DNA of 64,000 nt from contig CAXXHO010000005.1 of NCBI GenBank assembly GCA_963667725.2, forward strand, positions 480,001 to 544,000, in the 5' to 3' direction. This document shows positions 643 to 64,000 of the stretch, piece after piece (positions within the stretch are counted from its first letter, which is position 1; each line of letters opens with the position of its first letter). The stretch comes from Treponemataceae bacterium (GTDB lineage: Bacteria; Spirochaetota; Spirochaetia; Treponematales; Rectinemataceae). The position numbers and the translations under genes are program-made. The notes under the pieces are model-generated. The model had not been told where the DNA came from, ran no database searches, and saw nothing but the letters and a program-made list of their open reading frames with translations.

Positions 643-805
643 ACAAACATCCGTAGGATGCATCTAACATTTTCGCTTAACCTTTAAGCCCGACCTGAGC
701 GTAAGCGAAGGCTTGGCGCGATTCTTGCACCACTTTACGTTGCCGCTCCTACTTTACTGAATCTCGCAAGAAGCGTGCCAAAGGGCTTATAAGGTTGAAG
801 CGGGT

Positions 806-1034
806 GTTAGAAAGCGTTCATGTTCCTTAATACTTTTACCTGTGCAGCTTAACACTGTTAGAAAATACGCTGCATTTCAGAGAAATACCGAGATGAAATT
901 GTCAACGTTTACTTTAGGTAAATGCTGCAATGAATCTCGGCAATAAAAGATGCAGCGTATTTTCTAACATGAAATCTTACATTCTTTTCTTACATTTACC
1001 CTTTCTTTTTCTTCGAGCCATACGTCTTTCTAAC
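806..1034. other. Gene-less cassette family A, copy 1 (internal ~115-nt hairpin)
   Basis: Bounded by GTTAGAA/TTCTAAC; no conserved ORF; inverted repeat TGTTAGAAAATACGCTGCAT...ATGCAGCGTATTTTCTAACA. Confidence 0.9.
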
Positions 1035-1147
1035 ATTTTCGCTTAACCTTTAAATCCGTCCTGAGCGTAGCGAAGGATTGGCGCGCATTTTGCATTGTTG
1101 TTCCTGCAAAATGCGTGTCAACAGGATTTATAAGGTTGAAGCGGGTG

Positions 1148-1648
1148 TTAGGCTCCTCTTTTTTCGTATTCTTCTCTTCTTATCTCTATTACAATTTCTT
1201 CTTTATCTCTGCTTATTTCTTTAAATCCATAATTCTGTAATGCCCTATATCCATTTTGATTCTTTATATCTATTCTATCTTCCATTATTTCCCCATTAAA
1301 TTCATTGAAGTAATAATGAAGTAGTAAATCTAATGCTTGTCTACCAAATCCATGATTCCTATAATTGCTTTTTATCTTTACATTGAGTCTCGCTTTCTTT
1401 TCTTCTTTATCATAATTATGAAAGCTTATCTCTCCAATACACTGATGAGTATCTTCATGCAATATCAAAAAGTACTTATTTATATCTTTATCAAGTACAA
1501 GCATTTTTTGATACCATTGAGTATATCTTTCCTCTGACAATGGTTGTATGCCTCCTACATCTTCCATTGTCTCGGGATCTTCCCATATTCCTTTTACGAG
1601 TTGCCAATCACCTTTGGTCGGTGCAACTAGTTTTATTACGCTGCCCAT
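1148..1648 (-). CDS. GNAT N-acetyltransferase (RimJ/RimL-like)
   Basis: YRNHGFGRQAL acetyl-CoA motif; stop codon is the TAA of R''. Confidence 0.85.
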   Translation of the reverse strand: MGSVIKLVAPTKGDWQLVKGIWEDPETMEDVGGIQPLSEERYTQWYQKMLVLDKDINKYFLILHEDTHQCIGEISFHNYDKEEKKARLNVKIKSNYRNHGFGRQALDLLLHYYFNEFNGEIMEDRIDIKNQNGYRALQNYGFKEISRDKEEIVIEIRREEYEKRGA

Positions 1649-1844
1649 AAATGATTTTCTCTATTGTCTAGTGAGCCTAACATTGGCTTAACCTTTAACG
1701 CTCGTTCCCGAGCGAAGCGAGGGATTGGCGTGGTTTGTGCATTGTTGTTCCTGCACAAACCATGACAAAGAACGTTATAAGGTTGAAGCATATGTTAGAA
1801 GCTTTTTTAGGTAACTTTTGTCAATATGAATATTATAATTGATT

Positions 1845-2630
1845 CTACACTTTCTTTCCAATATAAAACACATACCCATAGTATTCTTTATATTTACTAT
1901 ATAATTCAGCTCCTCGCTTTTCATATTCAACAAATACTTCAGCGGATTTATTACCCTTATACTTTCTTAAAAATATTCCAGCTGCTTTTTTTTCAGCATT
2001 GAAAAAGTTATCAATCCAACAAGATTCAGGCAGACTAAAGGATGCTGTAAATATAAATCCTGCTTTTTGCATTTTAGCTATATTATTTGGAATTGTATCT
2101 ATTTCAGGATATGCGTCATTCCAAAAATCTTCGATCTCTTTTGGCCGCTCGTCTGTGAACCAAGAGGCTTCAGTAACAGCAATATAGCCTCCTTTCTTTA
2201 AGTAATTAATAAAATATTTCATTCCATTTTTAAATCCAATATTGTAAATAGCTCCTTCACACCAGATAAGATCTAATCCACCAATTTTGAAATCAAGTTT
2301 ATCCATTGATCCAATTTCGCCCTTTACTTTATCTTGAAGTTTTAATCGATCAATATTGCTATTTAGTTTCTCAATAAAACCGGAGAATAAATCAATAGCA
2401 GTAATTGTACCCGGGATGTTTTGTGCCAAGACAATTGTCTGACAACCAGTACCACATCCAAGATCGGCTACTTTTAAGGTACTGTTTAAATTATCTATAA
2501 AGCTTAGTGCTTTTAATGTAGCATCATTGCTTCCCGGCCCTTGACGTTCCATGCTTAAGAAAAATTCGCAAATCAATGAAACATCGAAATCATGAATATT
2601 AGGCTCTTCATTTCTCATTTCTTCCTCCAA
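1845..2630 (-). CDS. Class I SAM-dependent methyltransferase
   Basis: VADLGCGTG motif I, DLIWCEGAIY. Confidence 0.92.
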   Translation of the reverse strand: MEEEMRNEEPNIHDFDVSLICEFFLSMERQGPGSNDATLKALSFIDNLNSTLKVADLGCGTGCQTIVLAQNIPGTITAIDLFSGFIEKLNSNIDRLKLQDKVKGEIGSMDKLDFKIGGLDLIWCEGAIYNIGFKNGMKYFINYLKKGGYIAVTEASWFTDERPKEIEDFWNDAYPEIDTIPNNIAKMQKAGFIFTASFSLPESCWIDNFFNAEKKAAGIFLRKYKGNKSAEVFVEYEKRGAELYSKYKEYYGYVFYIGKKV

Positions 2631-2879
2631 TGCTTCTGCATTATCATGATATTTTTATTTCACACACTATTCTTTTTAGTTATATTAGTTATTTACACAA
2701 ATGATATATTACTATTTTATCTAGCGCCGAAGGCGTCCTTCTAACATTAGCTTGACCCTTAACGCTCGCTCCTGAGCGTAGCGAAGGATTGGCGTGGTTT
2801 GTGCATTGTTGTTCTGCACAAACCATGACAAAGGGCGTTATAGGGTCGAAGCAGGTGTTAGGCATTTTTTTCTTAAGGT

Positions 2880-3233
2880 TTATTCCTTTATTCTATAATA
2901 TTTAGCGAGTTCTTTGTATTTATTATAATCATAATTACTTTTAATTCTTGCTTTTTCTTTAATATATTCTATATTACTTTTTAACTTTTCTGGAATTTCT
3001 ACTGTTTCACTCTTTCTTGCTAATACTAATATTACTTCAACTATTTCGGTCCAGCTATCTATATTCTTTCCATCAAGTAATATTGGAACAATTTGATTAA
3101 TTGTATCAAAAGCAATAATTGGTTCTAAACACTTAATATATTTTTCACAAAATCCAGAAAACGCCCATTCATTCTTAGAGTACATTTTTCGAATGGATAA
3201 CAATTCTTCTATAAACTGATTCTTATTATTCAT
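2880..3233 (-). CDS. Hypothetical protein
   Basis: 117-aa ORF with RBS, sole ORF of cassette. Confidence 0.7.
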   Translation of the reverse strand: MNNKNQFIEELLSIRKMYSKNEWAFSGFCEKYIKCLEPIIAFDTINQIVPILLDGKNIDSWTEIVEVILVLARKSETVEIPEKLKSNIEYIKEKARIKSNYDYNKYKELAKYYRIKE

Positions 3234-3620
3234 TTTACATCCTATATTAAATTGATTATACTAAATTATTCAAATTACTAAATATAATTACGCTATAGGA
3301 ACAATCTTCTCTTGCACCATCTAACAAGCTAAATTTCAATATTGATAAACAAATAAGTCAATTTTACATAATAGTTTTCAAAATAGTTCCTCGGCCCGAA
3401 GGGTCTGCCTAACATTTTCGCTTAACCTTTAAGCCCGACCTGAGCGTAGCGAAGGATTGGCGCGATTCTTGCAACACTTTACATTGCCGCTCCTACTTTA
3501 CTGAATCTCGCAAGAAGCGTGCCAAAGGGCTTATAAGGTTGAAGCGGATGTTCGATGTCTTCTCTTTTTATTCTTCTAAAATAATTTGAAGCCCTTATAT
3601 TATTTGTCTTTTCCATTTGT

Positions 3621-4043
3621 CTACATACTTCTTTTTGATATTGGATGCTCTTCATTTAATTGAAGTAGATCCCATAGGTTTCCATAGAGATCTTCAAATA
3701 CTGCTACCATTCCATACTCAGCCTTTTTAGGCTCCCTAATGAATTTGATTCCATTTTCCTTCATAGCATTATAATCTCTCCAAAAATCATCTGTATTAAG
3801 AAATAAAAATACTCTGCCGCCGGTTTGATTTCCAATAAATGGTTCTTGCTCTGGCTTTGAAGCTTTAGCAAGTAAAAGCGTAGCTCCAGAACCTCCAGGA
3901 GGAGCAACTACAACCCATCGTTTATTTTGTTCAGGCTGATACGTGTCTTCAATAAGCACAAATTTTAGTTTCTTTATATAAAAATCAAGAACCTCATCAT
4001 AATCCTTTACAACAAGTGCTATATGTACAATTGATTGTTTCAT
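3621..4043 (-). CDS. VOC family (glyoxalase/bleomycin resistance) protein
   Basis: HIALVVKDYD...AVFEDLYGNLWDL. Confidence 0.9.
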   Translation of the reverse strand: MKQSIVHIALVVKDYDEVLDFYIKKLKFVLIEDTYQPEQNKRWVVVAPPGGSGATLLLAKASKPEQEPFIGNQTGGRVFLFLNTDDFWRDYNAMKENGIKFIREPKKAEYGMVAVFEDLYGNLWDLLQLNEEHPISKRSM

Positions 4044-4272
4044 ATTCCACCAATGTTACTAGTTTATATGAATATCTTCTACGAATAGAACGTATGCTTT
4101 TTTAAGATTCTTGCGCCGAAGGCGTCCATCGAACATTGGCGCTTAACCTTTAAGCCCGACCTGAGCGTAAGCGAAGGTTTGGCGCGATTCTTGCAACACT
4201 TTAAGTTGCCGCTCCTACTTTACGGGATCTCGCAAGAATCGTGACAACAGGGCTTATAAGGTTGAAGCGTGT

Positions 4273-4501
4273 GTTAGAAAGCGTTCATGTTCCTTAATAC
4301 TTTTACCTGTGCAGCTTAACACTGTTAGAAAATACGCTGCATTTCAGAGAAATACCGAGATGAAGTTGTCAACATTTACTTTAGGTAAATGCTGCAATGA
4401 ATCTCGGCAATAAAAAATGCAGCGTATTTTCTAACATGAAATCTTACATTCTTTTCTTACATTTACCCTTTCTTTTTCTTCGAGCCATACGTCTTTCTAA
4501 C
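4273..4501. other. Gene-less cassette family A, copy 2
   Basis: Near-identical to 806-1034. Confidence 0.9.
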
Positions 4502-4614
4502 ATTTTCGCTTAACCTTTAAATCCGTCCTGAGCGTAGCGAAGGATTGGCGCGCATTTTGCATTGTTGTTCCTGCAAAATGCGTGACAACAGGATTTATAA
4601 GGTTGAAGCGTGTG

Positions 4615-5127
4615 TTAGGTTTCTTTTTTTATTATATATATGCTCTTTATCTTCCCTGATCTCTCTTCATTCATCCAATATTTCATTCCTATCGCTTTTG
4701 CCACTGCTTTGGATGCTTCATTCTCTGGATTTATAATCGCTATAATCTTATCTAGTTTCTTTTCAGTAAAAGCATAATTAACTAATGCCTTTGATATTTC
4801 TTTACCATATCCTTTTCCCCATTTTGTTCTATCTATGTAATAATTCAGCTCTATATACCCTTTTCCCTTTATCTCTTTCGGAATAAATCCCGCATGTCCT
4901 ATTAATTCATGATTGCTTTTAAGCTCAATTGGCCATAGATCATATTCTTCCCTTTTTGGATCTTCTGCTACCTTCCTAAACTCTTCTATTAAAGACAATT
5001 TATCTCTTGGGCCTCCAGTATACCTTGTCATTTCGTCATCCATCCACAAGTATACTAAGAACTTAATGTCTGATTTTCTTTGATAACGCAGTATCAATCT
5101 ACTGGTTTTTAGTATCGTATCATCCAT
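4615..5127 (-). CDS. GNAT N-acetyltransferase (RimJ/RimL-like)
   Basis: TSRLILR, WGKGYGKE, NEASKAV; start reassigned to the ATG after GGAG. Confidence 0.88.
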   Translation of the reverse strand: MDDTILKTSRLILRYQRKSDIKFLVYLWMDDEMTRYTGGPRDKLSLIEEFRKVAEDPKREEYDLWPIELKSNHELIGHAGFIPKEIKGKGYIELNYYIDRTKWGKGYGKEISKALVNYAFTEKKLDKIIAIINPENEASKAVAKAIGMKYWMNEERSGKIKSIYIIKKET

Positions 5128-5228
5128 ACTTTCTCCAACAAAATATCTCTGTGATTCAGCGATTTTACTTTTCTGCACGAAGCGCCAAACCTAACATTCG
5201 TACATATTATCTAATACACTTTTTGTTT

Positions 5229-5426
5229 TTAAATTGAAATGCATTTTTGCACGATGAATATTATTCCTCCGATAACAATTGCTTTAAAAAGTAATGAAGC
5301 AATTTTGTTATTCAAAATAGCATCCATATCTACTGTCCCATTTTTAATTAGGATATAAATAATTATCACTATAAGTATAGGCAAACCAACCAAACCAATA
5401 ATCAACTTTGTATTCATTTGTATCAC
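5229..5426 (-). CDS. Small two-TM membrane protein
   Basis: Two hydrophobic segments; first ORF of cassette 4614-5459. Confidence 0.6.
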   Translation of the reverse strand: MIQMNTKLIIGLVGLPILIVIIIYILIKNGTVDMDAILNNKIASLLFKAIVIGGIIFIVQKCISI

Positions 5427-5566
5427 CGTTTTCTATTACGCCCGAAGGGTCAACCTAACGTTGGCTTAACCTTTAAAGCCTGGCCCGAGCGGCGTTGCGT
5501 AGTAACGATGCGAGGGATTGGCATGGTTTGTGCCTTGTTGTTCTGCACAAACCATGCCAAAAGGCT

Positions 5567-6217
5567 TTACAAGGTTGAAGCATGTGTTAGGTGCTTATCT
5601 TTTCTTAATGTTTTTATAGATCTGGCTACCCCATATAATACTAAAATAACTCCAACTAATACATTCAACCATTGTATTGCTATAGAAGGTATACTTGTCT
5701 TAATTATTGATAATAAAAGCATAACAATTGAAAGAAATAAAAATGTTGCTCCACCAGCACCTATACCAAATAATATGAGTTGTTTCTTTAAATAATTCTT
5801 TTCTATTGCTTTAGTAACAAATATGCTGCTCCAAAATACAATTGTCAAAGGACTTGATATTGTTAATATGAAGCAATTTATGAAACTTTTTATTGGACTC
5901 CATTCTATTGAACTATTTTTGATATTTGTACTTATATTATATAATCCATTTTTTAAGATTATAACTCCAAATATTATTAATACCATCGATCCAATAATAC
6001 CAAATATTTTTTTTACTTTTTCCTTCTCTAATAGTTTTCCAAGCCCAATAATCGATAATGCTATATACAAGTAATCTACAATTGTAACTGCAAGGATAGC
6101 AAATATGCTATTAATAAAATTGCTTTCAAAAGTAATACCTAATATATAAAAGAAAACAGGACCTACTGCTAATTGAAGAAACAATCCTGTCAGCAATCCA
6201 TTTAATAACGGCTCCAT
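5567..6217 (-). CDS. LysE family translocator
   Basis: GLFLQLAVGPV, LTISSPLTIVFW, multiple TM helices; stop lies inside attC. Confidence 0.85.
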   Translation of the reverse strand: MEPLLNGLLTGLFLQLAVGPVFFYILGITFESNFINSIFAILAVTIVDYLYIALSIIGLGKLLEKEKVKKIFGIIGSMVLIIFGVIILKNGLYNISTNIKNSSIEWSPIKSFINCFILTISSPLTIVFWSSIFVTKAIEKNYLKKQLILFGIGAGGATFLFLSIVMLLLSIIKTSIPSIAIQWLNVLVGVILVLYGVARSIKTLRKDKHLTHASTL

Positions 6218-6356
6218 TATTATCCTCATTGAACTATTGAAAGCGCGATAGCGTCCACCTAACATTTTCGCTTAACCTTTAAATCCGTCCTGAGCGTAGC
6301 GAAGGATTGGCGCGCATTTTGCATTGTTGTTCCTGCAAAATGCGTGACAACAGGAT

Positions 6357-6800
6357 TTATAAGGTTGAAGCAGGTGTTAGGTTATTTTTTCTCCCTAAAA
6401 ATAGGTGACTTGCATTTCCACATACTAAACATTTTTCCCTATGCATACAGAGCAGTTTCCCACATTCACTACATTCCCATTTTAACTCTTCTTGCCTTAA
6501 AAACAGTTGCATCCCTTGCTCTTTGATTGTTTTAAAGTTTTCATAAATGCTTACATTGTATTTATTTGAGTATCTTTTATTTAAATCTTTGATCCTTCTA
6601 CATGGATACTTCATACATTCACTACATAAAAGAGTAGTTTCTCCGTGTTTCTCTTCGCAATTTCTTATTCCACAGACAACACAATGTTTTGCTTTATTTA
6701 TATCTGATCCATTACATCCATTGCAGCTATTCTTTTCTCTTTGAAAAGCCAAGCAAAGGCTGCAATTTATGCCACAAGGAGCTATATCTTTTGCTTTCAT
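6357..6800 (-). CDS. DUF3795-type Cys-rich protein
   Basis: APCGINCSLC..CNGC..C..C..YPC. Confidence 0.8.
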   Translation of the reverse strand: MKAKDIAPCGINCSLCLAFQREKNSCNGCNGSDINKAKHCVVCGIRNCEEKHGETTLLCSECMKYPCRRIKDLNKRYSNKYNVSIYENFKTIKEQGMQLFLRQEELKWECSECGKLLCMHREKCLVCGNASHLFLGRKNNLTPASTL

Positions 6801-6994
6801 ATTCTTACGAGTAACGCCCTTGCTTTTTCGTAATCTTCTTCACTCACCATTATTGTTGCGTCTATACTAAAATATGCTGGTATTTGACTACCACTATCCG
6901 ATGATTGAATAATGTAAGGAATATTTTCTCTATCAAGAGTTATAGCAAAAGCATCAGCCTCAAATCGATTGTTGAATTCTTTCAGCTTTTTCAA
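6797..6994 (-). CDS. DUF2007-like small protein
   Basis: FNNRFEAD...LDRENIPYIIQ...IMVSEEDYEKA; paralogues at 15627 and 53892. Confidence 0.75.
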   Translation of the reverse strand: MKKLKEFNNRFEADAFAITLDRENIPYIIQSSDSGSQIPAYFSIDATIMVSEEDYEKARALLVRI

Positions 6995-7186
6995 ATTTTC
7001 TTCCTTTATATGAAATGAATCTGATTCGTGCGCGTAGCGTCAACCTAACATTTTCGCTTAACCTTTAAGCCCGACCTGAGCGTAAGCGAAGGTTTGGCGC
7101 GATTCTTGCAACACTTTACGTTGCCGCTCCTACTTTACTGAATCTCGCAAGAAGCGTGCCAAAGGGCTTATAAGGTTGAAGCGGGT

Positions 7187-7413
7187 GTTAGAAAGCGTTC
7201 ATGTTCCTTAAAACTTATACCTGGGCAGCTTAACACTGTTAGAAAATGCGCTGCATTTCAGAGAAATACCGAGATGAGTTGTCAGCGTTTACTTTAGGTA
7301 AATGCTGCAATGAATCTCGGCAATAAAAGATGCAGCGTATTTTCTAACATGAAATCTTACATTCTTTTCTTACATTACCTTTTCTTTTTCTTCGAGCCAT
7401 ACGTCTTTCTAAC
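7187..7413. other. Gene-less cassette family A, copy 3
   Basis: Near-identical to 806-1034. Confidence 0.9.
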
Positions 7414-7550
7414 ATTTTCGCTTAACCTTTAAGCCCGACCTGAGCGATAGCTCAGGTTTGGCGCGATTCTTGCACCACTTTACATTGCCGCTCCTACTTT
7501 ACTGAATCTCGCAAGAAGCGTGCCAAAGGGCTTATAAGGTTGAAGCGGGT

Positions 7551-7779
7551 GTTAGAAAGCGTTCATGTTCCTTAATACTTATACCTGTGCAGCTTAACAC
7601 TGTTAGAAAATACGCTGCATTTCAGAGAAATACCGAGATGAAATTGTCAGTGTTTACTTTAGGTAAATGCTGCAATAAATCTCGGCAATAAAAGATGCAG
7701 CGTATTTTCTAACATGAAATCTTACATTCTTTTCTTACATTTACTCTTTTATTTTCTTTGAGCCATACGTCTTTCTAAC
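7551..7779. other. Gene-less cassette family A, copy 4 (tandem with copy 3)
   Basis: Near-identical to 806-1034. Confidence 0.9.
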
Positions 7780-7891
7780 ATTGGCTTAACCCTTAACGCC
7801 TGTTCCTGAGCGAAGCGAAGGATTGGCGTGGTTTTTGCGTGATCTTTTCGCAAAAACCATGACAAAAGGCGTTATAGGGTTGAAGCATTTG

Positions 7892-8425
7892 TTAGATTTC
7901 TGCTCTTTTATAATATATCTTTACCATATATTCATTTAGTTTCTCAACTTTCTCAATCTTGAAATGCTTCTCGATTCCTATGTTTCCGAATAATGGTATC
8001 CCTTCTCCAAGTATTTTTGCTATTGTTGTTATAATCATCTCATCTATAAGATCTTCTTTAAGGAAAGATTGAATGGTCTTCCCTCCATCAACATAAATAT
8101 TGTTTATTCCTTTATAGTTTAAATTCTTTATAATCGTCTTAATATCTCCTGATACAATTTCTGCTTTATCTTTTAATATTGCTGGAACTGTCTTCAAGCT
8201 ATTACTTAATACAAAAACAGGTTTCGGATATGACCACTCTGGAAAGCCTACTACTGTTTCGAATGTATTTCTTTCCATGATGATTCCATCTATGTTTTCA
8301 ATATATTTTGAAAAACCATAATCATCATTCTTTGGATTGGGAATATTAATAAGCCAATCTATATCTCCATCAAGTTTTGCGATGAAGCCATCAAGAGAAC
8401 AAGCAATGTAAATATAATTTGGCAT
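7892..8425 (-). CDS. Dihydrofolate reductase family (RibD C-terminal-like) protein
   Basis: YIACSLDGFIA, IYVDGGKTIQ, LGEGIPLF. Confidence 0.88.
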   Translation of the reverse strand: MPNYIYIACSLDGFIAKLDGDIDWLINIPNPKNDDYGFSKYIENIDGIIMERNTFETVVGFPEWSYPKPVFVLSNSLKTVPAILKDKAEIVSGDIKTIIKNLNYKGINNIYVDGGKTIQSFLKEDLIDEMIITTIAKILGEGIPLFGNIGIEKHFKIEKVEKLNEYMVKIYYKRAEI

Positions 8426-8726
8426 ATTTTCTCTTTTAATTTGCTCGAAGGATCAATCTAACATTAACACTAAAAAGTTTAGGATGTATCTTTTTGCGCC
8501 GAAGGCGTCAATCTAACATTGGCTTAACCCTTAACGCCTGTTCCTGAGCGAAGCGAAGGATTGGCGTGGTTTTTGCGTCATCTTCTAGCAAAAACCATGA
8601 CAAAAGGCGTTATAGGGTTGAAGCATTTGTTAGGCACTTTTTCTTTCTATAATATTAGTACTTCCATAATTCTATTTACACTTTATTTCTTTATAATATT
8701 ACTTTATCTTCTATCTGCTTACTATT

Positions 8727-9122: not shown

Positions 9123-9306
9123 ACAATTTGCTCTTTAATGCTAGCAAGAATAATCTTTAATCCTCGGCGCGAAGCGTCTGCCTAACATTTTCGCTTAACC
9201 CTTAACGCCCGCTCCTGAGCGAAGCGAAGGATTGGCGTGGTTTGTGCATGGGAGTCCTGCACAAACCATGACAAAGGGCGTTATAGGGTTGAAGCGGGTG
9301 TTAGGT

Positions 9307-10082: not shown

Positions 10083-10325
10083 ATGATTCCTCCGCGCCGA
10101 AGGCGTCAACCTAACATTGGCTTAACCCTTAACGCCCGCTCCTGAGCGAAGCGAAGGATTGGCGTGGTTTTTGCGTAAAGGAGCGTAGCGACTCGCAAAA
10201 ACCATGACAAAGGGCGTTATAGGGTTGAAGCATTTGTTAGAAATCTTCCCCTTGTCTCTAAATGTCTTTTAGTATTGTATTCAATAAATCTCTTATTCTT
10301 TCTTTATGTTTTCAGTTTCATCTCT

Positions 10326-16050: not shown

Positions 16051-16215
16051 GTTAGAATTTTCACCCCAATTGGCACTTCTTCTCTTTTCTTCTTTTTTCC
16101 ATAAGATTTTTCTTATCTTCGTTCCTTTTCTAACGACATAATGAATGCGAGAATAAGGGAAAGACGCACCGCTTCTCTTCCCTTTTCGAGCAGTATAACA
16201 TTAAATAATTCTAAC
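16051..16215. other. Gene-less cassette family B, copy 1 (variant B2)
   Basis: GTTAGAATT...AATTCTAAC with the conserved 47-nt hairpin. Confidence 0.9.
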
Positions 16216-33340: not shown

Positions 33341-33503
33341 GTTAGAATTTTCACCCCAAAGAGCACTTTTTTCTTCTCTTCTCTTTAGCTTTATTATCTT
33401 CTTCTCTTCGTCGTTTTTTATATGCACGTATCATGCGAGAATAAGGGAAAGACGCACCGCTTCTCTTCCCTTTTCGAGCAGTATAACATTCAATAATTCT
33501 AAC
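33341..33503. other. Gene-less cassette family B, copy 2
   Basis: Family B sequence. Confidence 0.9.
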
Positions 33504-33636: not shown

Positions 33637-33801
33637 GTTAGAATTTTCACCCCAATTGGCACTTCTTCTCTTTTCTTCTTTTTTCCATAAGATTTTTCTT
33701 ATCTTCGTTCCTTTTCTAACGACATAATGAATGCGAGAATAAGGGAAAGACGCACCGCTTCTCTTCCCTTTTCGAGCAGTATAACATTAAATAATTCTAA
33801 C
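33637..33801. other. Gene-less cassette family B, copy 3 (variant B2)
   Basis: Matches 16051-16215, including its long-loop attC. Confidence 0.9.
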
Positions 33802-37697: not shown

Positions 37698-37859
37698 GTT
37701 AGAATTTTCACCCCAAAGTGCACTTCTTTCTTCTCTTCTCTTTAACTTTTAATTTTCTTCTCTTCGTCGTTTTTTATAGGCACGTAACATGCGAGAATAA
37801 GGGAAAGACGCATCGCTTCTCTTCCCTTTTCGAGCAGCTGAACAACTAATAATTCTAAC
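37698..37859. other. Gene-less cassette family B, copy 4
   Basis: Family B sequence. Confidence 0.9.
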
Positions 37860-42120: not shown

Positions 42121-42283
42121 GTTAGAATTTTCACCCCAAAGAGCACTTCTTTCTTCTCTTCTCTTTAACTTATCTATTTTCTTCTTTTCGTCGTTTTTTA
42201 TATGCACGTAACATGCGAGAATAAGGGAAAGACGCACCGCTTCTCTTCCCTTTTCGAGCAGCTGAACAATAAATAATTCTAAC
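42121..42283. other. Gene-less cassette family B, copy 5
   Basis: Family B sequence; hairpin at 42214-42260. Confidence 0.9.
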
Positions 42284-45051: not shown

Positions 45052-45247
45052 CTATCACCTTCTCTATGATTTTGGCGCCGAAGGCGTCCATCCAACATTG
45101 GCTTAAGCTGGGAGCTTCGACCGCGAAGCGGTTGGCGCGCTTTTTGCGTAAAGGAGCGTAGCGACTCGCAAAAAGCGTGACAAAGAAGCGACTCAGCTTG
45201 AAGCTTTTGTTAGGTGTTTATATTTTATTCTTTTATCTCAACACTGC

Positions 45248-53197: not shown

Positions 53198-53360
53198 GTT
53201 AGAATTTTCACCCCAAAGAGCACTTCTTTCTTCTCTTCTCTTTAACATCTCTATTTTCTTCTCTTCGTCGTTTTTTATATGCCTGTAAAATGCGAGAATA
53301 AGGGAAAGACGCACCGCTTCTCTTCCCTTTTCGAGCAGTATAACATTTAATAATTCTAAC
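53198..53360. other. Gene-less cassette family B, copy 6
   Basis: Family B sequence. Confidence 0.9.
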
Positions 53361-53451
53361 ATTGGCTTAACCTGCGAGCCGTCGTGCGCTACTGCGCTAC
53401 CAGGGCATTATCAATTTAACATTGCATCTATTTATGCTTTTCAAACGCGAG

Positions 53452-53892
53452 TCAGGTTGAAGCTTTTGTTAGGTTATTTCTTTTCTCCAAATATATTAGA
53501 TTTGGATTTCCACAGAATAAACACATATCTCTATGCATACACAAATATTTGCCACATCTATCACATTGCCATTTAGCTTTTTCGTTCTTGATAAACTCTC
53601 TAATTCCCAATGTCTTTATATCCTCAAAGTTCTTATATATGTTCACATTATATCTATTAAAATATCTCTTTTCTAAATCCTTTATTCTTCTACATGGATA
53701 TTTCTTACATTTACTACATAATAGCTCTTTATTACCCTTTTTCTCTTCACAGTTCCTTATTCTACATTCTATGCAATGGTATGCCTTATGATCATCTGAT
53801 CCATTACATCCATTACAATGATTCTTATCCCTTTGATACGCTAAACAGAGACTACAATTTATTCCACAAGGCGCAAAATCTTTAGTTTTCAT
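53452..53892 (-). CDS. DUF3795-type Cys-rich protein
   Basis: Paralogue of 6357. Confidence 0.8.
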   Translation of the reverse strand: MKTKDFAPCGINCSLCLAYQRDKNHCNGCNGSDDHKAYHCIECRIRNCEEKKGNKELLCSKCKKYPCRRIKDLEKRYFNRYNVNIYKNFEDIKTLGIREFIKNEKAKWQCDRCGKYLCMHRDMCLFCGNPNLIYLEKRNNLTKAST

Positions 53893-54290: not shown

Positions 54291-54453
54291 GTTAGAATTT
54301 TCACCCCAAAGCGCACTTTTTTATTCTCTTCTCTTTAGCTTTATTATCTTCTTCTCTTCGTCGTTTTTTATAGGCACGTAACATGCGAGAATAAGGGAAA
54401 GACGCACCGCTTCTCTTCCCTTTTCGAGCAGCTGAACAATAAATAATTCTAAC
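54291..54453. other. Gene-less cassette family B, copy 7
   Basis: Family B sequence. Confidence 0.9.
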
Positions 54454-55190: not shown

Positions 55191-55352
55191 GTTAGAATTT
55201 TCACCCCAAAGAGCACTTCTTTCTTCTCTTCTCTTTAACTTTTAATTTTCTTCTCTTCGTCGTTTTTTATAGGCACGTAACATGCGAGAATAAGGGAAAG
55301 ACGCATCGCTTCTCTTCCCTTTTCGAGCAGCTGAACAACTAATAATTCTAAC
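55191..55352. other. Gene-less cassette family B, copy 8
   Basis: Family B sequence. Confidence 0.9.
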
Positions 55353-55394
55353 ATTGGCTTAACCTTTAAAGCCTGGCCTGAGCGTAGCGAAGGA

Positions 55395-55437
55395 TTGGCA
55401 CGCTTTTTGCATTGTTGTTCTGCAAAAAGCGTGCCAA
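55395..55437. promoter_or_regulatory. Consensus sigma54 -24/-12 motif on both arms of attC (representative of the motif in almost all attC)
   Basis: TTGGCACGCTTTTTGCA on + (55395-55411) and on - (55421-55437). Confidence 0.55.
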
Positions 55438-55463
55438 AAGGCTTTATAAGGTTGAAGCATGTG

Positions 55464-56756: not shown

Positions 56757-56928
56757 TTTTTCCTCCTAATCTTCCTAACATTGGCTTAACCTTTAACGCT
56801 CGCTCCCGAGCGAAGCGAGGGATTGGCGCGCATCTTGCGTAAAGGAGCGACGCCACGATAGTGGCGAAGCGACGCGCAAGATGCGTGACAAAGAGCGTTA
56901 TAAGGTTGAAGCATGTGTTGGACAGTTC

Positions 56929-57513
56929 TTATTTAAATAATTCTTCAATTTTTATCCTATTCTCATATTCTTCAATATATTTCTCTATATTTTCTTCATT
57001 TATTGAATCATATATTTCAATAACGCTATTTTTACTTATATAGTATGGTTCATCTAAAAGCCCAAATGTTCTTTTCTCAAACATCCTTCCTTCGATAACA
57101 AGATAATGTTCATTTTCATTGACAGAATAAAATAGCATTTTAAAAATAATATTTTCTTTTATATATTCGTCATTATTTTTTTTCTTATATAATATCTTTG
57201 TATCAAAAATAGATTCTGGAATTTCTTTATATATCTCAACTTGATTTGTAACTGCTATTTCTTCCCAATTAAGATATTTTTCTAATACTGCCTTTAAATG
57301 CTTTATATCTTCTACTGTAAATTCTAAAAGCCCGTTATCATCGCCTAATAGAAAAGTCCCATCTTCATTATTAAATAAAAGTTCAATGTTTTGCATGATG
57401 AAGTTATTCTCAGTTTTTCTTTCTCCAGCAATTTCTAGTATTAATGAGTTATTTGCATAGATTGGTTGTACTGTCGATATTAAGAAATATAGCATTATTA
57501 TTGCTATAGTCAT
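56929..57513 (-). CDS. Secreted hypothetical protein
   Basis: Signal-peptide-like N-terminus; GGAGG RBS. Confidence 0.7.
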   Translation of the reverse strand: MTIAIIMLYFLISTVQPIYANNSLILEIAGERKTENNFIMQNIELLFNNEDGTFLLGDDNGLLEFTVEDIKHLKAVLEKYLNWEEIAVTNQVEIYKEIPESIFDTKILYKKKNNDEYIKENIIFKMLFYSVNENEHYLVIEGRMFEKRTFGLLDEPYYISKNSVIEIYDSINEENIEKYIEEYENRIKIEELFK

Positions 57514-57674
57514 TAATCCTCCAATTACAATGTATTATTTAACAATCCCTTAATCTGTCCAACATTGGCTTAACCTTTAAAGCCTGGCCCGAGCTACTGC
57601 GAGGGATTGGCGTGGTTTTTGCGTAATCTTCAAGCAAAAACCATGACAAAAGGCTTTATAAGGTTGAAGCTTTT

Positions 57675-57837
57675 GTTAGAATTTTCACCCCAAAGCGCAC
57701 TTCTTTCTTCTCTTCTCTTTACCTTATCTATTTTCTTCTCTTCGTCGTTTTTTATATGCACGTATCATGCGAGAATAAGGGAAAGACGCACCGCTTCTCT
57801 TCCCTTTTCGAGCAGTATAACATTTAATAATTCTAAC
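57675..57837. other. Gene-less cassette family B, copy 9
   Basis: Family B sequence. Confidence 0.9.
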
Positions 57838-57948
57838 ATTGGCTTAACCCTTAACGCCTGTTCCCGAGCGAAGCGAGGGATTGGCGTGGTTTTTGCGTCA
57901 TCTTCTCGCAAAAATCATGACAAAAGGCGTTATAGGGTTGAAGCTTTT

Positions 57949-58111
57949 GTTAGAATTTTCATCCCAAAGCGCACTTCTTTCTTCTCTTCTCTTTAACATC
58001 TCTATTTTCTTCTCTTCGTCGTTTTTTATATGCACGTAACATGCGAGAATAAGGGAAAGACGCACCGCTTCTCTTCCCTTTTCGAGCAGCTGAACAACAA
58101 ATAATTCTAAC
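57949..58111. other. Gene-less cassette family B, copy 10 (tandem with copy 9)
   Basis: Family B sequence. Confidence 0.9.
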
Positions 58112-58222
58112 ATTGGCTTAACCTTTAAAGCCTGGCCTGAGCGAAGCGAAGGATTGGCGTGGTTTTTGCGTCATCTTCTCGCAAAAACCATGACAAAAGG
58201 CTTTATAAGGTTGAAGCGTTTG

Positions 58223-58720
58223 TTAGATTCTTTTCACATATTCATATGCTACTTTTTCATATCCGTATTTTTGGAAAAACTGATGAGCTTTTATATTATT
58301 GATTGAACTTGCTAAACCGATCTTTGATATATTATTTTCTTTAGCAAATCTTTCTATAAACTTTATCATCTCATTTCCAATACCTTTTCTACGATATTTA
58401 TCAGCAGTAACGATATCAGATATTTCAATATATTTTTCATCTTTATTTATTTTAATTATTGCAATTGTAATCGTTTCATTAATTCCACTAAAAAATGCTT
58501 TAATTACCCTAATATTATTTTCTTCCTTAACTAATGTTTTTATTAAAGATTCAGAAAAATCTTTCTTCCATTCAAATTTATCATTTATTCGGCCTTCTGC
58601 AATATCTAATAAAGTATAATAGTCTTTACATGTTGTGGATTTTATAAAATTAGAACAATTGTATAGCTCATTTAAATTATGGCTATCTATAAACTCCACT
58701 ACAATAGAATTATTTTCCAT
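58223..58720 (-). CDS. GNAT N-acetyltransferase
   Basis: YRRKGIGNEM, NIKAHQFFQKYGY. Confidence 0.88.
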   Translation of the reverse strand: MENNSIVVEFIDSHNLNELYNCSNFIKSTTCKDYYTLLDIAEGRINDKFEWKKDFSESLIKTLVKEENNIRVIKAFFSGINETITIAIIKINKDEKYIEISDIVTADKYRRKGIGNEMIKFIERFAKENNISKIGLASSINNIKAHQFFQKYGYEKVAYEYVKRI

Positions 58721-59010
58721 ATTTATTACCCTAGTTGTCGAATGTTGAAGTAAAACAAACTATTAGTACATTTTTTTTTACACATTTCTTATAAATGAAT
58801 CTAACATTAGCTTAACCTTTAAATCCTTGCCTGAGCTACTGCGAAGGCTTGGCGTGGTTTGTGCATTGTTGTTCTGCACAAACCATGCCAAAGGATTTAT
58901 AAGGTTGAAGCAGTTGTTAGGTTTTTAATATATGCTAAATATGAATAAATAGATTATTTGTGTAATAAATATATTTTTTTTTAACCTTTATTATAATTTA
59001 TTAGCTATCT

Positions 59011-60300
59011 TTACAAATTTAACATTTTATCTTTTAGATAGGAAGGATTCCAAAATTCTTTTTCAAAGTATCTTTTTACTTCTTCTTGTTTTTCTTGCAT
59101 ATAATTTAAAATATTTTTTGAATTATCTTTTAAGATAGCATAAATTGCCCTATCTATAAGTCCCCTTTTACAATAATCTTGAAATATTTTATCTATTTCT
59201 TCTAGATTTAATCTTTTTCTATATGGCCTATCTTCTGCTAAAGCGGTAAATATATCTGCAATTCCCATTACTCTTGCTCCAGTATTTAGTCTTTCTGCTT
59301 TAATATGAAATGGATATCCCGAACCATCTAGTCGCTCATGATGAAAAGCAGCCCATTCAGAAATTCTTCTTATCCCATCACTTAGAGAATTTATAATACT
59401 ATATGTATAATATGTATGTTGACGCATAATAGCCATTTCTTGATTAGTAAGTGGTCCAGGCTTATTTAGAATTGAATTAGGTACTACAAGCTTACCAATA
59501 TCATGAAAATTACCTGCAACTTTCATGAGCTTTATCTCTGATTCCGCATATCCAGAATACATAGCAATTTGAGAAGCGACAGATGCTACTCCTGTTGAAT
59601 GCGTAGCTGTAAATGGAGATCTAAAATCTATTATGTTCCTAAATAGCACTGAAATATCTATTGCTGACTGCGTATCAATATTTATATTTCGAACAGGGGC
59701 AGTGTTTTGAAGCAATGAATAAAGCTTTATTGATACAATATCCAACCAAAAATCTTCTCTAATAGCTAAATCTGTAAAGACATTCACCAAATATGGGTTT
59801 ATCTCGGTTCCAGACATCTTTTTAATTCTATCAACAATATCTCTATTTTGATATAAAATATATACTTTCCTATCAATTGATCTTTCAACTGTATCTGCTA
59901 ATTTTAGTATTTGCGCATAATACAAATTTGATCTTTGATCATTGCTATTGCCTAATTCCCATGAAATATGATGATATAATACAATTTTAGATAATGGTAT
60001 AAATAGCGGAAGTGTACTTAACAATCGTTCCCCTAATACACAATGCCTATTAACATACTTTTCTTTCCCCATATAGATAGCCACTTTTTCTTCTGAGGAA
60101 AGAGCACCAATATCATGTAACAATGCAGCAATAAATAGATTTTCTTTTTCTTTTTCATCCAGATTTAGTTGTTGTGCTAATTCCATAACAATGAAAGCTG
60201 TTCTTATTTGATGCTGTGATAAATCTGGACTAGCTAAATCCAGTGCATCTGATAAAGCTAATAGAATATTTGCAAGACTCACTTTGGTGTTTAAGTACAT
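59011..60300 (-). CDS. Tandem HD / HD-GYP phosphodiesterase
   Basis: LLHDIG, FHDIGK, HHERLDGSGYP, ADIFTAL.EDRPYR. Confidence 0.92.
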   Translation of the reverse strand: MYLNTKVSLANILLALSDALDLASPDLSQHQIRTAFIVMELAQQLNLDEKEKENLFIAALLHDIGALSSEEKVAIYMGKEKYVNRHCVLGERLLSTLPLFIPLSKIVLYHHISWELGNSNDQRSNLYYAQILKLADTVERSIDRKVYILYQNRDIVDRIKKMSGTEINPYLVNVFTDLAIREDFWLDIVSIKLYSLLQNTAPVRNINIDTQSAIDISVLFRNIIDFRSPFTATHSTGVASVASQIAMYSGYAESEIKLMKVAGNFHDIGKLVVPNSILNKPGPLTNQEMAIMRQHTYYTYSIINSLSDGIRRISEWAAFHHERLDGSGYPFHIKAERLNTGARVMGIADIFTALAEDRPYRKRLNLEEIDKIFQDYCKRGLIDRAIYAILKDNSKNILNYMQEKQEEVKRYFEKEFWNPSYLKDKMLNL

Positions 60301-60537
60301 CTATTACCTCTTTATCAATAATTGTTTAAGGTTTAATAGTAAATCTATGTGTTAACTAACATATAGTGATTTAGCTGTTAGCATAATTGCTAAACCCCAT
60401 TTTTTATAATTTTAATAAACCTAACGTTGGCTTAACCTTTAACGCTCGCTCCCGAGCATAGCGAGGGATTGGCGTGGTTTGTGCATTGTTGTTCTGCACA
60501 AACCATGACAAAGAGCGTTATAAGGTTGAAGCAGCTG

Positions 60538-61176
60538 TTAGGTTTGCGTTTTTCTATTTCTTAACACTATTTCCCATACATTTTTAGGTTTTTTATATCT
60601 ACTTACAATATTCTCTTCCATAGTAATTATTTCCCAATTATCATCAATAATTCTATCAATATCATCTTTTTCAAAGAAACGTTTTTTCTCCCCTAAATAC
60701 CTATAGTAATTTTTCTCAATCTCTTTGCCCTTTCCAGCTCCCCAATTACTATCTTTTATTGAGTTAACCCTAAAAGCAAAGAGTCCATCATTTTCTAATA
60801 CTCTACATATTTCACAAAATATCTCTTTTGTCTTTTCCCAAGAGAAATAATGCAATGATAAGTCTGCTATTACTGCACGAAAACTATTGTCAGTAAATGG
60901 TAATGGATCTCTTATATCATGTAGTACAGTATGTGCTTTAGGTAAATACTTACTTATCTTCTTTAATGAAACTGCAGAATAGTCACAGGATACTATACTA
61001 ATTCCTTTCTCAAGCAGATATTTTGTATTATTTCCTGATCCACATCCTAAATCTAAAACAGGTTTCTCATTTATTTTTAATTGGCCCATATACTTATCAA
61101 GCCACAAGTCATATACAATCTCATTATTCATCGATTCGGAGAATAGGAAATCCCATTTTACTTTAGTTGCATCCAT
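60538..61176 (-). CDS. Class I SAM-dependent methyltransferase
   Basis: VLDLGCGSG, ADLSLHYF. Confidence 0.9.
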   Translation of the reverse strand: MDATKVKWDFLFSESMNNEIVYDLWLDKYMGQLKINEKPVLDLGCGSGNNTKYLLEKGISIVSCDYSAVSLKKISKYLPKAHTVLHDIRDPLPFTDNSFRAVIADLSLHYFSWEKTKEIFCEICRVLENDGLFAFRVNSIKDSNWGAGKGKEIEKNYYRYLGEKKRFFEKDDIDRIIDDNWEIITMEENIVSRYKKPKNVWEIVLRNRKTQT

Positions 61177-61333
61177 AAAACCTCATAATTGATATACTTA
61201 GCTAAACCTAACATTGGCTTAACCTTTAAATCCGTGCCTGAGCGAAGCGAGGGCTTGGCGTGGTTCTTGCGCAATCTTCTCGCAAGAACCATGACAAAGG
61301 ATTTATAAGGTTGAAGCATGTGTTAGAGGTTTC

Positions 61334-62140
61334 TTACTTTTTATCATGCAACATATGTTCTTTAAAAAACTCAATGATGTATGATAAGGATTCTTCAGGT
61401 ATTTCATGTCCAGAATTGTTGATATACGTCTTAACTGGAGCATCTATTATTGAATCATACTCGTTTACATTATTATTAATGATTCTTCCTACTCCACATT
61501 TATTAATATTAAGTACTATATTTGCCATTTCCATTTGCCATGAAAACTTAACAAGTGGATCTTTTCTTCCTGCCACAAGAAATACTGGTTTTGGTTCTAG
61601 TTTGTTTCTATCTTCCTTTGATGGTAGTATTCCAGCTATTGGAGCGACTGCGGCAAGCACATTACCTCTCGCTGCCCATAATACATAGGTAAAAACAGCT
61701 CCATTAGAAAAGCCAATAGAGTATATTCTAGTTTTATCTACTGAGTAATTACTATTAAGATATTGAAATAGTTTATCGAAAAACTCGATATCTCTTCCAT
61801 TTTGATCATCTACAGAACTTTGCCAACCTGGAAATTTGCCTTCCGGGTCAACGAGATTTGTGGGTGTATTTAATCCTTGTGGATAAACAACTATTGCCTC
61901 AGGCCAAAACTTTTCTATATGAAAGCGCAAAGCTGCTGATTTCATTGAACCGCCGTGGCCATGAAAAGCAAACACGATAGGATGCAAAGCATTATTTATG
62001 TTTGATGGAATATAGATTTCTGCATTTCTAATAATTCCATTAACTTCAATAGACACAGATTCTAATCCGAACACAGGAAACAAAAACAATATTTCTAATA
62101 AAAAGAATAGTAAAGCTTTTCGCTGCCATCTCATTTGCAT
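61334..62140 (-). CDS. Secreted alpha/beta hydrolase (PHB depolymerase/LpqC-like esterase)
   Basis: FHGHGG, GFSNG, G.KDPLV, GH; the track N-terminus is attC read-through. Confidence 0.85.
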   Translation of the reverse strand: MQMRWQRKALLFFLLEILFLFPVFGLESVSIEVNGIIRNAEIYIPSNINNALHPIVFAFHGHGGSMKSAALRFHIEKFWPEAIVVYPQGLNTPTNLVDPEGKFPGWQSSVDDQNGRDIEFFDKLFQYLNSNYSVDKTRIYSIGFSNGAVFTYVLWAARGNVLAAVAPIAGILPSKEDRNKLEPKPVFLVAGRKDPLVKFSWQMEMANIVLNINKCGVGRIINNNVNEYDSIIDAPVKTYINNSGHEIPEESLSYIIEFFKEHMLHDKK

Positions 62141-62292
62141 GTCCTTTACTATATTTGCAGCTAATACCTCTAACATTGGCTTAACCTTTAAATCCGCGCC
62201 TGAGCTACTGCGAAGGCTTGGCGTGGTTTGTGCATGGGGTTTCTGCACAAACCATGACAAAGGATTTATAAGGTTGAAGCAGGTGTTAGGCG

Positions 62293-62844
62293 CTATTTTC
62301 TTAATTTAAATTCAAAGCCAAATTTTACTTCTAATGCTAAAATTTCCTTTTTAACCTCTTTTGCTTTTTCTTTTATATCCAAATCAATTAGTATTTTATC
62401 AATTTTACTAATTAATATTTCTAATTCATTTAATGGCATATCATTAGCAACAAGGCAGTATAATCCTTTCGATTTTCCATCATTATACTTTTCTAATAAT
62501 ATCTTTAAATACTTTTGTCTTTTACCTAAATCGGTTTCATATTTTTTAATATCATTTTTTGCTTCTATAAAATTCTGTTTTACACTTCTATATGATATAA
62601 ATGAATCACATTTGCTTTCTTCTTGATATTTTTTACATGGGTATTCACTGCATTGAAAACAATATTCCACATTATCATGTTTTCTATTGCATGTTTCTAC
62701 TGCACAAGTTGGATGCTGAGTTGAAAAGTTTTCTCCGCCACAGCCTGGACATTTCGAACTTCCATCAGTATTAAATCTTGGGCACAAACTGCAATTTAAT
62801 CCACAAAGAGAAAACAAAGGATTTTTTCGTATAAAAGGTATCAT
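62293..62844 (-). CDS. DUF3795-type Cys-rich protein, copy 2
   Basis: One amino acid difference from 51689. Confidence 0.8.
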   Translation of the reverse strand: MIPFIRKNPLFSLCGLNCSLCPRFNTDGSSKCPGCGGENFSTQHPTCAVETCNRKHDNVEYCFQCSEYPCKKYQEESKCDSFISYRSVKQNFIEAKNDIKKYETDLGKRQKYLKILLEKYNDGKSKGLYCLVANDMPLNELEILISKIDKILIDLDIKEKAKEVKKEILALEVKFGFEFKLRK

Positions 62845-63116
62845 CTCTACTCCAGACAAAGCATAATGCCTATTCAGTCTTTATTTATCTTTGCGCGCGA
62901 AGCGCGTCCGCCTAACATTGGCTTAACCCTTAACGCCTGCTCCTGAGCGAAGCGAAGGATTGGCGTGGTTTGTGCATTGTTGTTCTGCACAAACCATGAC
63001 AAAAGGCGTTATAGGGTTGAAGCATTTGTTAGAAATCTTCCCCTTATCTCTTTAGGTCTTAATTATTGTCTTTAATAAATCTCTTATTCTTTCTTAATTT
63101 TCTTAGAATCTTCTCT

Positions 63117-63467
63117 TTATTCAAAAATATCTTCTTTATTCTCGTATTTAATATAGTCTTCTCTTCTTGGGCTAAAGACTTCTATAGCTACTGAATCCTC
63201 AAGTATTTCAGCTTTATGATTAGCATTTGACAAAATTGTCCAACTATCACCAGGATGTAATACTTTAGATTTCCCATCAATAAAGAGCCTAATGCTACCT
63301 TTTACAAGATATCCAGTTTGTTCATTTATATGCTTATGTTCGGGAAGTGAAGAACCTTTTTGGAGTAAGAATTCAACAAGTAATGAATTTTCTCCATAGC
63401 TAAGAGTCTTAATGCTTATACCATGGATGATTTCTTTGTATCCATTTCTCGATGCAATGCCGAACAT
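63117..63467 (-). CDS. Cupin domain protein (copy 3)
   Basis: Paralogue of 10326. Confidence 0.9.
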   Translation of the reverse strand: MFGIASRNGYKEIIHGISIKTLSYGENSLLVEFLLQKGSSLPEHKHINEQTGYLVKGSIRLFIDGKSKVLHPGDSWTILSNANHKAEILEDSVAIEVFSPRREDYIKYENKEDIFE

Positions 63468-63658
63468 ATGCTTTTCTCCATCATGTTGATTAATAATTAC
63501 TGCAATGAACTATAAATATTCTTCCTGCGCGGGAGCGTCTTTCTAACATTGGCTTAACCCTTAACGCCTGTTCCCGAGCGAAGCGAGGGATTGGCGTGGT
63601 TTTTGCGTTATCTTCTCGCAAAAATCATGACAAAAGGCGTTATAGGGTTGAAGCTTTT

Positions 63659-63821
63659 GTTAGAATTTTCACCCCAAAGAGCACTTCTTTCTTCTCTTCT
63701 CTTTAACTTATCTATTTTCTTCTTTTCGTCGTTTTTTATATGCACGTAACATGCGAGAATAAGGGAAAGACGCACCGCTTCTCTTCCCTTTTCGAGCAGC
63801 TGAACAACTAATAATTCTAAC
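63659..63821. other. Gene-less cassette family B, copy 11
   Basis: Family B sequence. Confidence 0.9.
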
Positions 63822-64000
63822 ATTGGCTTAACCCTTAACGCGTACATTGGCGCGGTTTGTGCTTGCGAGCGAAGCGAGTTGCACAAACCGTGACAATAGC
63901 GTTATAGGGTTGAAGCAGGTGTTGGACGACCCTATTTAGCTGTCTATATACTTCCTAACTACATTCACTTTGCCGATTTTATAATCACTAAATCCTGATT

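Follow-up and report, generated by a model that had tools for sequence, protein, structure and literature searches.

A sigma-54-like element in the inner stem of attC sites from Treponemataceae reverse integrons

The window analysed here is a stretch of 64,000 nucleotides from a Treponemataceae bacterium (assembly GCA_963667725.2, contig CAXXHO010000005.1, positions 480,001 to 544,000), and it lies inside the cassette array of a reverse integron. The element in question is a short motif, carried by nearly every attC recombination site of this array, that resembles the -24/-12 promoter element of sigma-54 (RpoN). An initial annotation of the same DNA proposed that each cassette carries a portable RpoN site in its attC, and its claims are taken up where the results bear on them. 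The source genome is referred to as G000 and its contigs as C1, C3, C5 and C7, the window being C5:480001-544000.

The array and its attC sites

Sites of the attC type function as folded single strands, and they are held to be structure-defined, with sequence conservation confined to the integrase boxes. A finder that relies on the R and L boxes alone locates 87 of them in the window, from 666-808 to 63819-63923, the same number as in the initial annotation. They separate short cassettes whose open reading frames (ORFs) lie on the - strand. All 87 units open with AACRTT...TTRAS and close with TYGAARC...GTT, as integron core sites do. Read along the + strand, an attC is composed of an R' box (CTAAC), an L' box (CTTAAC), an outer stem, a side hairpin (in most copies), an inner stem of 16-17 bp with its loop, a return arm, an L'' box with an extra G, and an R'' box (GTTAG). 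The extrahelical bases are found in the 3' arm of the + strand, a G in TT(G)AAG and a T in the outer stem, in TTA(T)AGG; under the accepted model of attC sites, this identifies the + strand as the bottom strand, the one that recombines. The units are imperfect palindromes with a marked tendency to fold: two attCs have fold z-scores of -8.7 and -8.6, and the long type (675-810) has -3.7.

The window covers part of a reverse-integron array of about 160 kb, one of three such arrays in G000. Each array is terminated by an integron integrase, and the three integrase genes match TIGR02249 above the NCBIfam cut-off with 447-462 bits. On C5, intI lies on the - strand like the cassette ORFs, and the arrays on C1 and C7 have the same layout. 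An intI gene co-directional with its cassettes is the "unusual" or "reverse" arrangement described for Treponema (PMC6557892). A conserved attI-like sequence, CTAACATTTATTGGACAG, follows each of the three intI genes. The features of the locus are as follows:

666..63923, + strand (the bottom, recombining strand): array of 87 attC sites, delimited by the box finder, the ORFs, the position of intI and the extrahelical bases.
7777..7893, + strand: representative attC of the common type, 117 nt, a three-way junction; its DNA fold has -35.7 kcal/mol on the bottom strand and -31.5 kcal/mol on the top strand.
C5:~390000-550000, C1:1-35000 and C7:38000-80000: the three arrays of G000, delimited by attC and intI layout.
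C5:550880-551806 (-), C1:34408-35331 (-) and C7:37069-37989 (+): the intI genes, each co-directional with its array.

A conserved inner-stem motif

The motif TTGGCRYRNNNNKTGC has 97 matches in the window (86 on the + strand and 11 on the - strand), where shuffled sequence is expected to give 0.09; none of 100 shuffles reached 97. All 86 matches on the + strand fall within attCs. The initial annotation had described the motif as TTGGCRYR-N4-KTGC and had placed it in every attC except one, at 53354; it is indeed carried by 86 of the 87, the exception lying at 53358-53470. The copies that it cited at 713, at 55395 and in attCs with divergent arms (at 45132, 46725 and 63847) agree with its description, as do the eight middle tetramers, GTTT (63 copies), ATTC (10), CATT (4), CTTT (3), GTTC (3), CTTC, TTTT and CATC (1 each). 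The middle four bases were said to be mostly compensated, and they pair with the other arm in 78 of the 86. The motif, being on the + strand, is antisense to the - strand ORFs and so faces into its own cassette, as had been claimed. The claim that the spacing never changes holds inside the window but fails beyond it, where four attCs have N9 in place of N8 (C5:409500 and C5:470525 in G000, and the metagenomic L151 and L168), owing to a one-base bulge in the left arm. The 11 matches on the - strand are attCs that have C, and not A, opposite the second G in the other arm. The copies that illustrate these points are:

7823..7838, + strand: sigma-54-like -24/-12 element TTGGCGTGGTTTTTGC in the left arm of the inner stem, with GG at 7825-7826 and GC at 7837-7838.
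7850..7864, + strand: right arm of the same inner stem (GCA...GACA), with A opposite G(-24) and T opposite G(-22).
55395..55410, + strand: consensus-grade copy TTGGCACGCTTTTTGC; its mirror on the - strand, at 55422-55437, also fits.
713..728, + strand: motif TTGGCGCGATTCTTGC of the long-type attC (666-808), with a second copy TTGGCACGCTTCTTGC at 766-781 on the - strand.
53358..53470, + strand: motif-less attC with the same R and L boxes and an unrelated interior, recurring at C5:463287, in G002 and in one metagenome contig.

The right arm at 7850..7864 reads TGTCA on the - strand and is thus no sigma-54 element. The mirror at 55422-55437 fits because both non-Watson-Crick pairs are "repaired" in that attC.

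In the whole of G000, across its three reverse integrons, TGGC-N8-TGC is found on the bottom strand of 219/230 attCs and on the top strand of 25. What sets the exceptions apart is an N9 bulge (two copies), the second attC type, TGG in place of TGC (two), TGTC (one), TAGC (one), or decay in the case of copies on C3. Small clusters of attCs occur on C3, the other large contig, at 352952, 503171-522281 and 1635373-1653897, distant from all three intI genes.

Relatives were gathered by their boxes, with the inner stem unused. The L''/R'' pattern was applied to 185,579 species genomes, and for metagenome contigs the pattern consisted of both box pairs with a free interior of 70-100 nt; the totals for named genomes and metagenomes are those of the matches listed and are lower bounds. 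Among the matches listed, the motif is on the bottom strand of 198/211 distinct attCs from G000, 186/195 from metagenomes, 24/25 from named genomes, 34/39 from G002 and 9/11 from G019. The same attC superfamily occurs, again among the matches listed, in metagenome-assembled genomes (MAGs) of Treponemataceae and Treponema, Alkalispirochaeta alkalica, a "Spirochaetes" MAG, Lampropedia hyalina, and MAGs of Trichloromonas and Desulfobacteraceae, as well as at no fewer than 152 metagenome loci (>=152). The named hosts are mostly spirochaetes, while the metagenomes come from digester, sludge, groundwater and sediment.

A total of 446 of the 474 distinct attCs could be aligned, the other 28 being too short in the helix or mis-anchored, some of them motif-positive; as anchored for the alignment, some of them wrongly, 435/474 carry the motif. 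Seven positions are fixed in 99-100% of the 446, namely T-26 (446), G-25 (443), G-24 (441), C-23 (445), T-14 (446), G-13 (443) and C-12 (443). A pyrimidine (C or T) stands at -21 and a purine (G or A) at -20, and -19 to -15 are free to vary. There are 59 forms of the 8-mer between TGGC and TGC, and 393/431 of these spacers (91%) pair fully with the other arm. The outer stem, side branch and loop differ among attC subtypes, and the distance from the inner-stem module to the L' box varies with the presence of the side branch. TGGC and TGC might have been no more conserved than the stem positions around them; across related attC families, however, their entropy is 0-0.09 bit, against 0.36-1.5 bit at the neighbouring positions. 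Since seven bases have stayed fixed amid this turnover of stem, loop and spacer, inheritance from one master copy is an insufficient explanation. The class-wide signature is real and, judged from the papers searched, undescribed.

The G+C content of the window is 30-36%, whereas the contig means of G000 are 54-59%. On C5, C1 and C7 the arrays have 30-41% G+C in most 5-kb bins, compared with 58-68% directly outside them. Low-G+C arrays in high-G+C flanks, together with the occurrence of the same attC class in spirochaete and other MAGs, suggest a cassette pool that is common to hosts of very different base composition.

Several other features of the array were observed. The second attC type (53358-53470; C5:463287-463401; L008, L009 and L158) holds an internal AACATTG-like piece in its interior, and is seen again in a congener and in one metagenome contig. 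In 24/87 attCs the R' box is directly preceded, on the + strand, by a short hairpin that is rich in G+C and ends in GCGTC (e.g., GCGCCGAAGGCGTC, with a GNA loop), as at 8537-8556 and 10135-10154; this hairpin corresponds to the first bases of the neighbouring cassette. A cassette body of about 157 nt, well conserved save for a variable middle, has 11 copies in the window:

16054-16212, copy in which no ORF of >=60 aa was seen by eye.
33344-33500, copy.
33640-33798, copy.
37701-37856, copy.
42124-42280, copy.
53201-53357, copy.
54294-54450, copy.
55194-55349, copy.
57678-57834, copy.
57952-58108, copy.
63662-63818, copy.

This body could be a regulatory or small-RNA cassette.

Sigma-54 site or folded-strand element

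The sigma-54 consensus is YTGGCACG-N4-TTGCW, with GG and GC at a strict spacing. The attC motif has the GG, the GC and the fixed spacing inside TGGC...TGC that define a -24/-12 element, as the initial annotation had claimed. In the extended consensus the pyrimidine at -21 and the purine at -20 fit, unlike the G at -22 (93%) and the mixed -11. The five positions that Bonocora et al. term "important", at which deviation is rare in their data, are GG and TGC (PMC4591121). The seven invariant attC positions cover all five, and the five "unimportant" positions of that study are variable in attCs. The motif derived by chromatin immunoprecipitation (ChIP) of RpoN in Vibrio cholerae is tGGcacnnttttTGC (PMC3439928), and the common attC reads TGGCGTGGTTTTTGC. 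Comparison with the published E. coli ChIP-seq site tables (PMC4591121, Tables 1-2) shows that TGGCGT and TGGCGC are bound at -24, with near-identical 17-mers occupied in vivo. These bound variants include the confirmed xdhA promoter, a site upstream of rmf and sites within fdoI and metF; their matrix scores are 10.8-12.3 (PMC4591121). In the text that holds those tables, "TGGCA" appears 52 times and "TGGCG" 14 times (PMC4591121).

The genome has the proteins that such a site would call for, in line with the checks suggested in the initial annotation: rpoN is present (PF04552, 181 bits, at C3:2311504), and there are nine strong PF00158 matches for enhancer-binding proteins, one of them in a protein with no detectable HTH_8. 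All five of the other carrier hosts tested (5/5) also have rpoN. The best consensus sites in G000 have AT-rich flanks and lie upstream of a glutamine-synthetase-like gene, two sigma-70-family genes, an Hsp20 gene and activator-adjacent genes; given these canonical promoters, the RpoN of G000 appears to read the usual motif. Perfect-consensus sigma-54 promoters were seen at C3:1539074 and C5:~871300, upstream of the RpoS/RpoD-like ORFs C3:1539115-1539948 and C5:870411-871283. These promoters of sigma-factor genes recall the RpoN-RpoS cascade of Borrelia.

The two arms of the inner stem are not perfectly complementary. Opposite G-24, 391 of the 446 attCs have A and 53 have C, so that a G.A mismatch is present in 87%; two pairs further on, the base opposite -22 is T in 444/446, giving a G.T wobble in 92%. 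Where these odd pairs have been lost, the G.A mismatch is replaced by G-C in the context of 21 different spacers and by T-A in that of 4; for the G.T wobble the corresponding numbers are 13 for A-T and 2 for G-C. The preference for G-C over T-A indicates that G(-24) is under tighter constraint than the base opposite. Both asymmetries fit an RpoN site, and the common resolutions yield TGGCA on both arms.

The odd pairs also affect the fold. Under DNA parameters, 434/446 attCs fold more stably as bottom strand than as top strand (means of -30.5 and -26.6 kcal/mol). The gap between the strands averages 4.3 kcal/mol in attCs with both odd pairs and 0.4-0.9 kcal/mol in those with Watson-Crick pairs at both positions. 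A second device has the same strand bias: the mini-hairpin GCGNAGC is found on the bottom strand of 337/474 distinct attCs and on the top strand of 3/474. In the representative attC it lies as follows:

7810..7816, + strand: bottom-strand-specific mini-hairpin GCGAAGC of the side branch, with a GNA triloop.

GCGNAGC is mostly GCGAAGC or GCGTAGC, with further copies at 55382-55388, 45123-45129 and 45156-45162; attCs of the window have it in the side branch, most metagenomic attCs in the apical loop. The folded strand is genuinely under selection, and the class holds several devices that favour folding of the bottom strand, to which the second G of "GG" and G(-22) belong.

The inner hairpin is autonomous, and its left arm on the bottom strand is, to judge by its sequence, a competent sigma-54 element; that it is a selected RpoN site is possible rather than probable. 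In duplex attC, RpoN holoenzyme would sit as a closed complex facing antisense into the cassette. While silent, this complex would act as a roadblock or insulator against read-through between cassettes, and an enhancer-binding protein acting from solution could then elicit antisense RNA across the array. The activator without HTH_8 would be a candidate for such action; activation without a DNA-binding domain is documented for DctD250 (PMC3844500). The A opposite G(-24) would stop the opposite arm from becoming a second, sense-firing site, and the joint retention of G.A at -24 and G.T at -22 would let the bottom strand fold better than the top. Of the portable RpoN site in the initial annotation, the motif, its invariance, its orientation and the presence of rpoN and activators have thus held up, while antisense RNA, a roadblock and control of attC extrusion are kept as what such a site might do.

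It is tempting to speculate that RpoN reads the folded site as well. The helix ends at -12 or -11 in 357/474 attCs, and it is at -12/-11 that sigma-54 holds early-melted DNA (PMC3844500), which allows this idea. The folded bottom strand would be double-stranded from -26 to -12 with the loop opening at -12/-11, mimicking the junction of a closed complex, and RpoN, alone or as holoenzyme, would be a structure-aware factor that locks or unlocks attC hairpins. This extension is improbable.

Several findings weigh against a selected RpoN site. At -22, G is found in 413 attCs and A in 33, even though the consensus A would pair perfectly with the T opposite, and -11 is not biased towards A/T (A 152, C 105, G 146, T 43), a relaxation that is shared by intragenic sigma-54 sites of Salmonella (PMC3844500). 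No activator-domain match of G000 lies within or next to an array or any of its three intI genes, and no upstream activator site of the kind that marks a sigma-54 promoter was recognised at the attC motif. The 219 or more sites borne by attCs outnumber a normal RpoN regulon, for which 68-135 sites have been published (PMC3439928, PMC4591121), and titration of RpoN would therefore be costly. All copies come from one attC superfamily; there is a single evolutionary origin and no repeated convergence. Nor can one dismiss the idea that an unrelated conserved element matches a known motif by chance, the motif having been singled out among very many windows. Finally, there are the odd pairs themselves, and the right arm, which is as invariant as the left (446 attCs). 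The invariance of the right arm extends to the non-pairing A (391/446) and to the T (444/446), so selection must also act on the folded strand.

The last two points, together with the stability of the bottom strand, the dependence of the strand gap on the odd pairs, the same bias in GCGNAGC and the established action of attCs as folded single strands, favour a different explanation. On that account the hairpin matters in the folded bottom strand alone, where it biases folding and strand choice or is read by a structure-specific host or integron protein other than RpoN, and its likeness to sigma-54 promoters is coincidental. This is as possible as a selected RpoN site, and likewise short of probable. 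Folding asymmetry accounts for the odd pairs; thermodynamics leaves unexplained the T-A, G-C, C-G and T-A, G-C, C-G pairs around them, which never covary although their neighbours do, and a sequence-specific reader is therefore needed. RpoN is, to our knowledge, the only known reader with this specificity. For seven arbitrary invariant bases to form the sigma-54 core at the right spacing, the chance is about 4^-7 before correction for the motifs and windows examined. Moreover, the geometry relative to the R and L boxes is not fixed, and the integrons of Treponema denticola are described as fully active with attCs of 63-68 bp (PMC3607928), so that related integrons recombine short sites without the module. 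The varying distance to the L' box and the shortness of the T. denticola attCs make a direct requirement of the integrase unlikely, as far as one can argue across related integrons.

Two further explanations were weighed. The hairpin might work in the cassette transcript, in processing, stability or translation coupling, the DNA motif being a by-product; an attC between co-directional ORFs would be transcribed, and attC RNA structure is reported to affect translation of the downstream cassette. This is nevertheless decidedly unlikely: in sense RNA the odd pairs become U.C and A.C, which leaves the structure weakest in the likeliest transcript, the top-strand DNA fold is the less stable one, and the GNA mini-hairpin, a motif of the DNA type, lies on the antisense strand. 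It also counts against a role in RNA that Rfam gave no matches at the gathering threshold in the 64-kb window, the cassette bodies of about 157 nt included. Alternatively, the invariant bases might have no function and stem from one recent master attC, with too little time to change. Sedentary integron arrays are known for homogeneous attCs, and among 86 attCs of the window there are merely eight variants of the middle four bases. Against this, divergence has affected outer stem, side branch and loop as well as the spacer, with its 59 largely compensated forms, and the seven positions are still at 99-100%, and the clusters on C3, far from intI, have lost the motif in 3/11 attCs, versus 8/219 in the rest of G000. 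An absence of function is thus very unlikely indeed.

Other candidates were rejected. The right arm, read as a sigma-70 promoter, offers xTGACA but, as judged by eye, no -10 element at a suitable distance, and a Type I restriction target would hardly be conserved across phyla. A loose hairpin pattern, meant to reveal independent families that share the signature, matched 383/401 genomes of Lampropedia's class and so did not discriminate; the outliers, G042 and G060, were scattered coding matches in GC-rich DNA and not repeats.

Relation to known elements and meaning

The attC motif shares with sigma-54 promoters the GG/GC spacing, T-26, T-14, C-23, Y-21, R-20 and a T-rich stretch from -18 to -15. 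It differs from them in G-22 and in the lack of an A/T preference at -11; it also lies inside a recombination hairpin, in antisense orientation, without an identified activator site, and in more than 200 copies per genome. Repetitive extragenic palindromes and bacterial interspersed mosaic elements (REP/BIME) are likewise repeated imperfect palindromes with conserved mismatches and binding sites for host proteins. Unlike them, the attC palindrome is an integrase substrate that travels with cassettes, and no dedicated transposase is implied.

A parallel on the sigma-54 side is provided by the intragenic and antisense sites of E. coli and Salmonella, which are also defined by sequence and, when intragenic, relaxed at -11 (PMC4591121; PMC3844500). 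At these sites the holoenzyme is inactive and away from gene starts, and interference, antisense RNA or repression has been proposed (PMC4591121; PMC3844500). They are, however, single-copy and within coding sequence, whereas the attC motif is in a mobile, repeated recombination site found across phyla.

As attCs, the present sites resemble those of Treponema reverse integrons in their R and L boxes (AAC/GTT), the extrahelical G and T, the imperfect palindrome and the direction of intI (PMC3607928; PMC6557892). Long attCs of 115-132 bp are known from some Treponema species (PMC3607928; PMC6557892), in contrast to those of T. denticola, which are too short for an inner-stem module (PMC3607928). 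A functional analogue may be seen in the antisense promoters of gene-less Vibrio cassettes, which act as array silencers (PMC11014356). In Vibrio constructs, an antisense promoter at the downstream end of a cassette lowers the expression of the upstream cassette (PMC11014356). These promoters belong to particular cassettes and are outside attC, and neither "sigma54" nor "RpoN" occurs in the text of PMC11014356. Literature searches that combined integrons or attC with sigma-54 yielded nothing beyond incidental matches and primer strings. No link between sigma-54 and attC, and no conserved inner-stem sequence, was found in the main text of the integron and RpoN papers searched (PMC3439928, PMC6557892, PMC11014356, PMC8876359, PMC3607928), and none of the motif strings occurs in the main text of PMC4909258, its supplementary primer table apart. 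Both kinds, attC and the -24/-12 element, are known; what appears to be new, judged from sequence, is a class of attC with a putative -24/-12 element embedded in it.

A whole class of attC sites keeps, in addition to its integrase boxes, seven invariant bases that make up the core of the most universal type of bacterial promoter. If RpoN does not bind them, they constitute a new sequence-specific feature of attC folding (G.A, G.T and GNA mini-hairpins on the bottom strand) that needs an explanation of its own. If RpoN binds, each cassette would bring a host-portable control point, and hundreds of cassettes could come under the simultaneous control of one sigma factor, which would silence, insulate or mobilise them. 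Were RpoN to bind the folded attC as well, excision and shuffling at hundreds of sites would be tied to the state of RpoN and its activators in any host that bears rpoN. RpoN binding would thus bear on the silence of large arrays and on the timing of their reshuffling.

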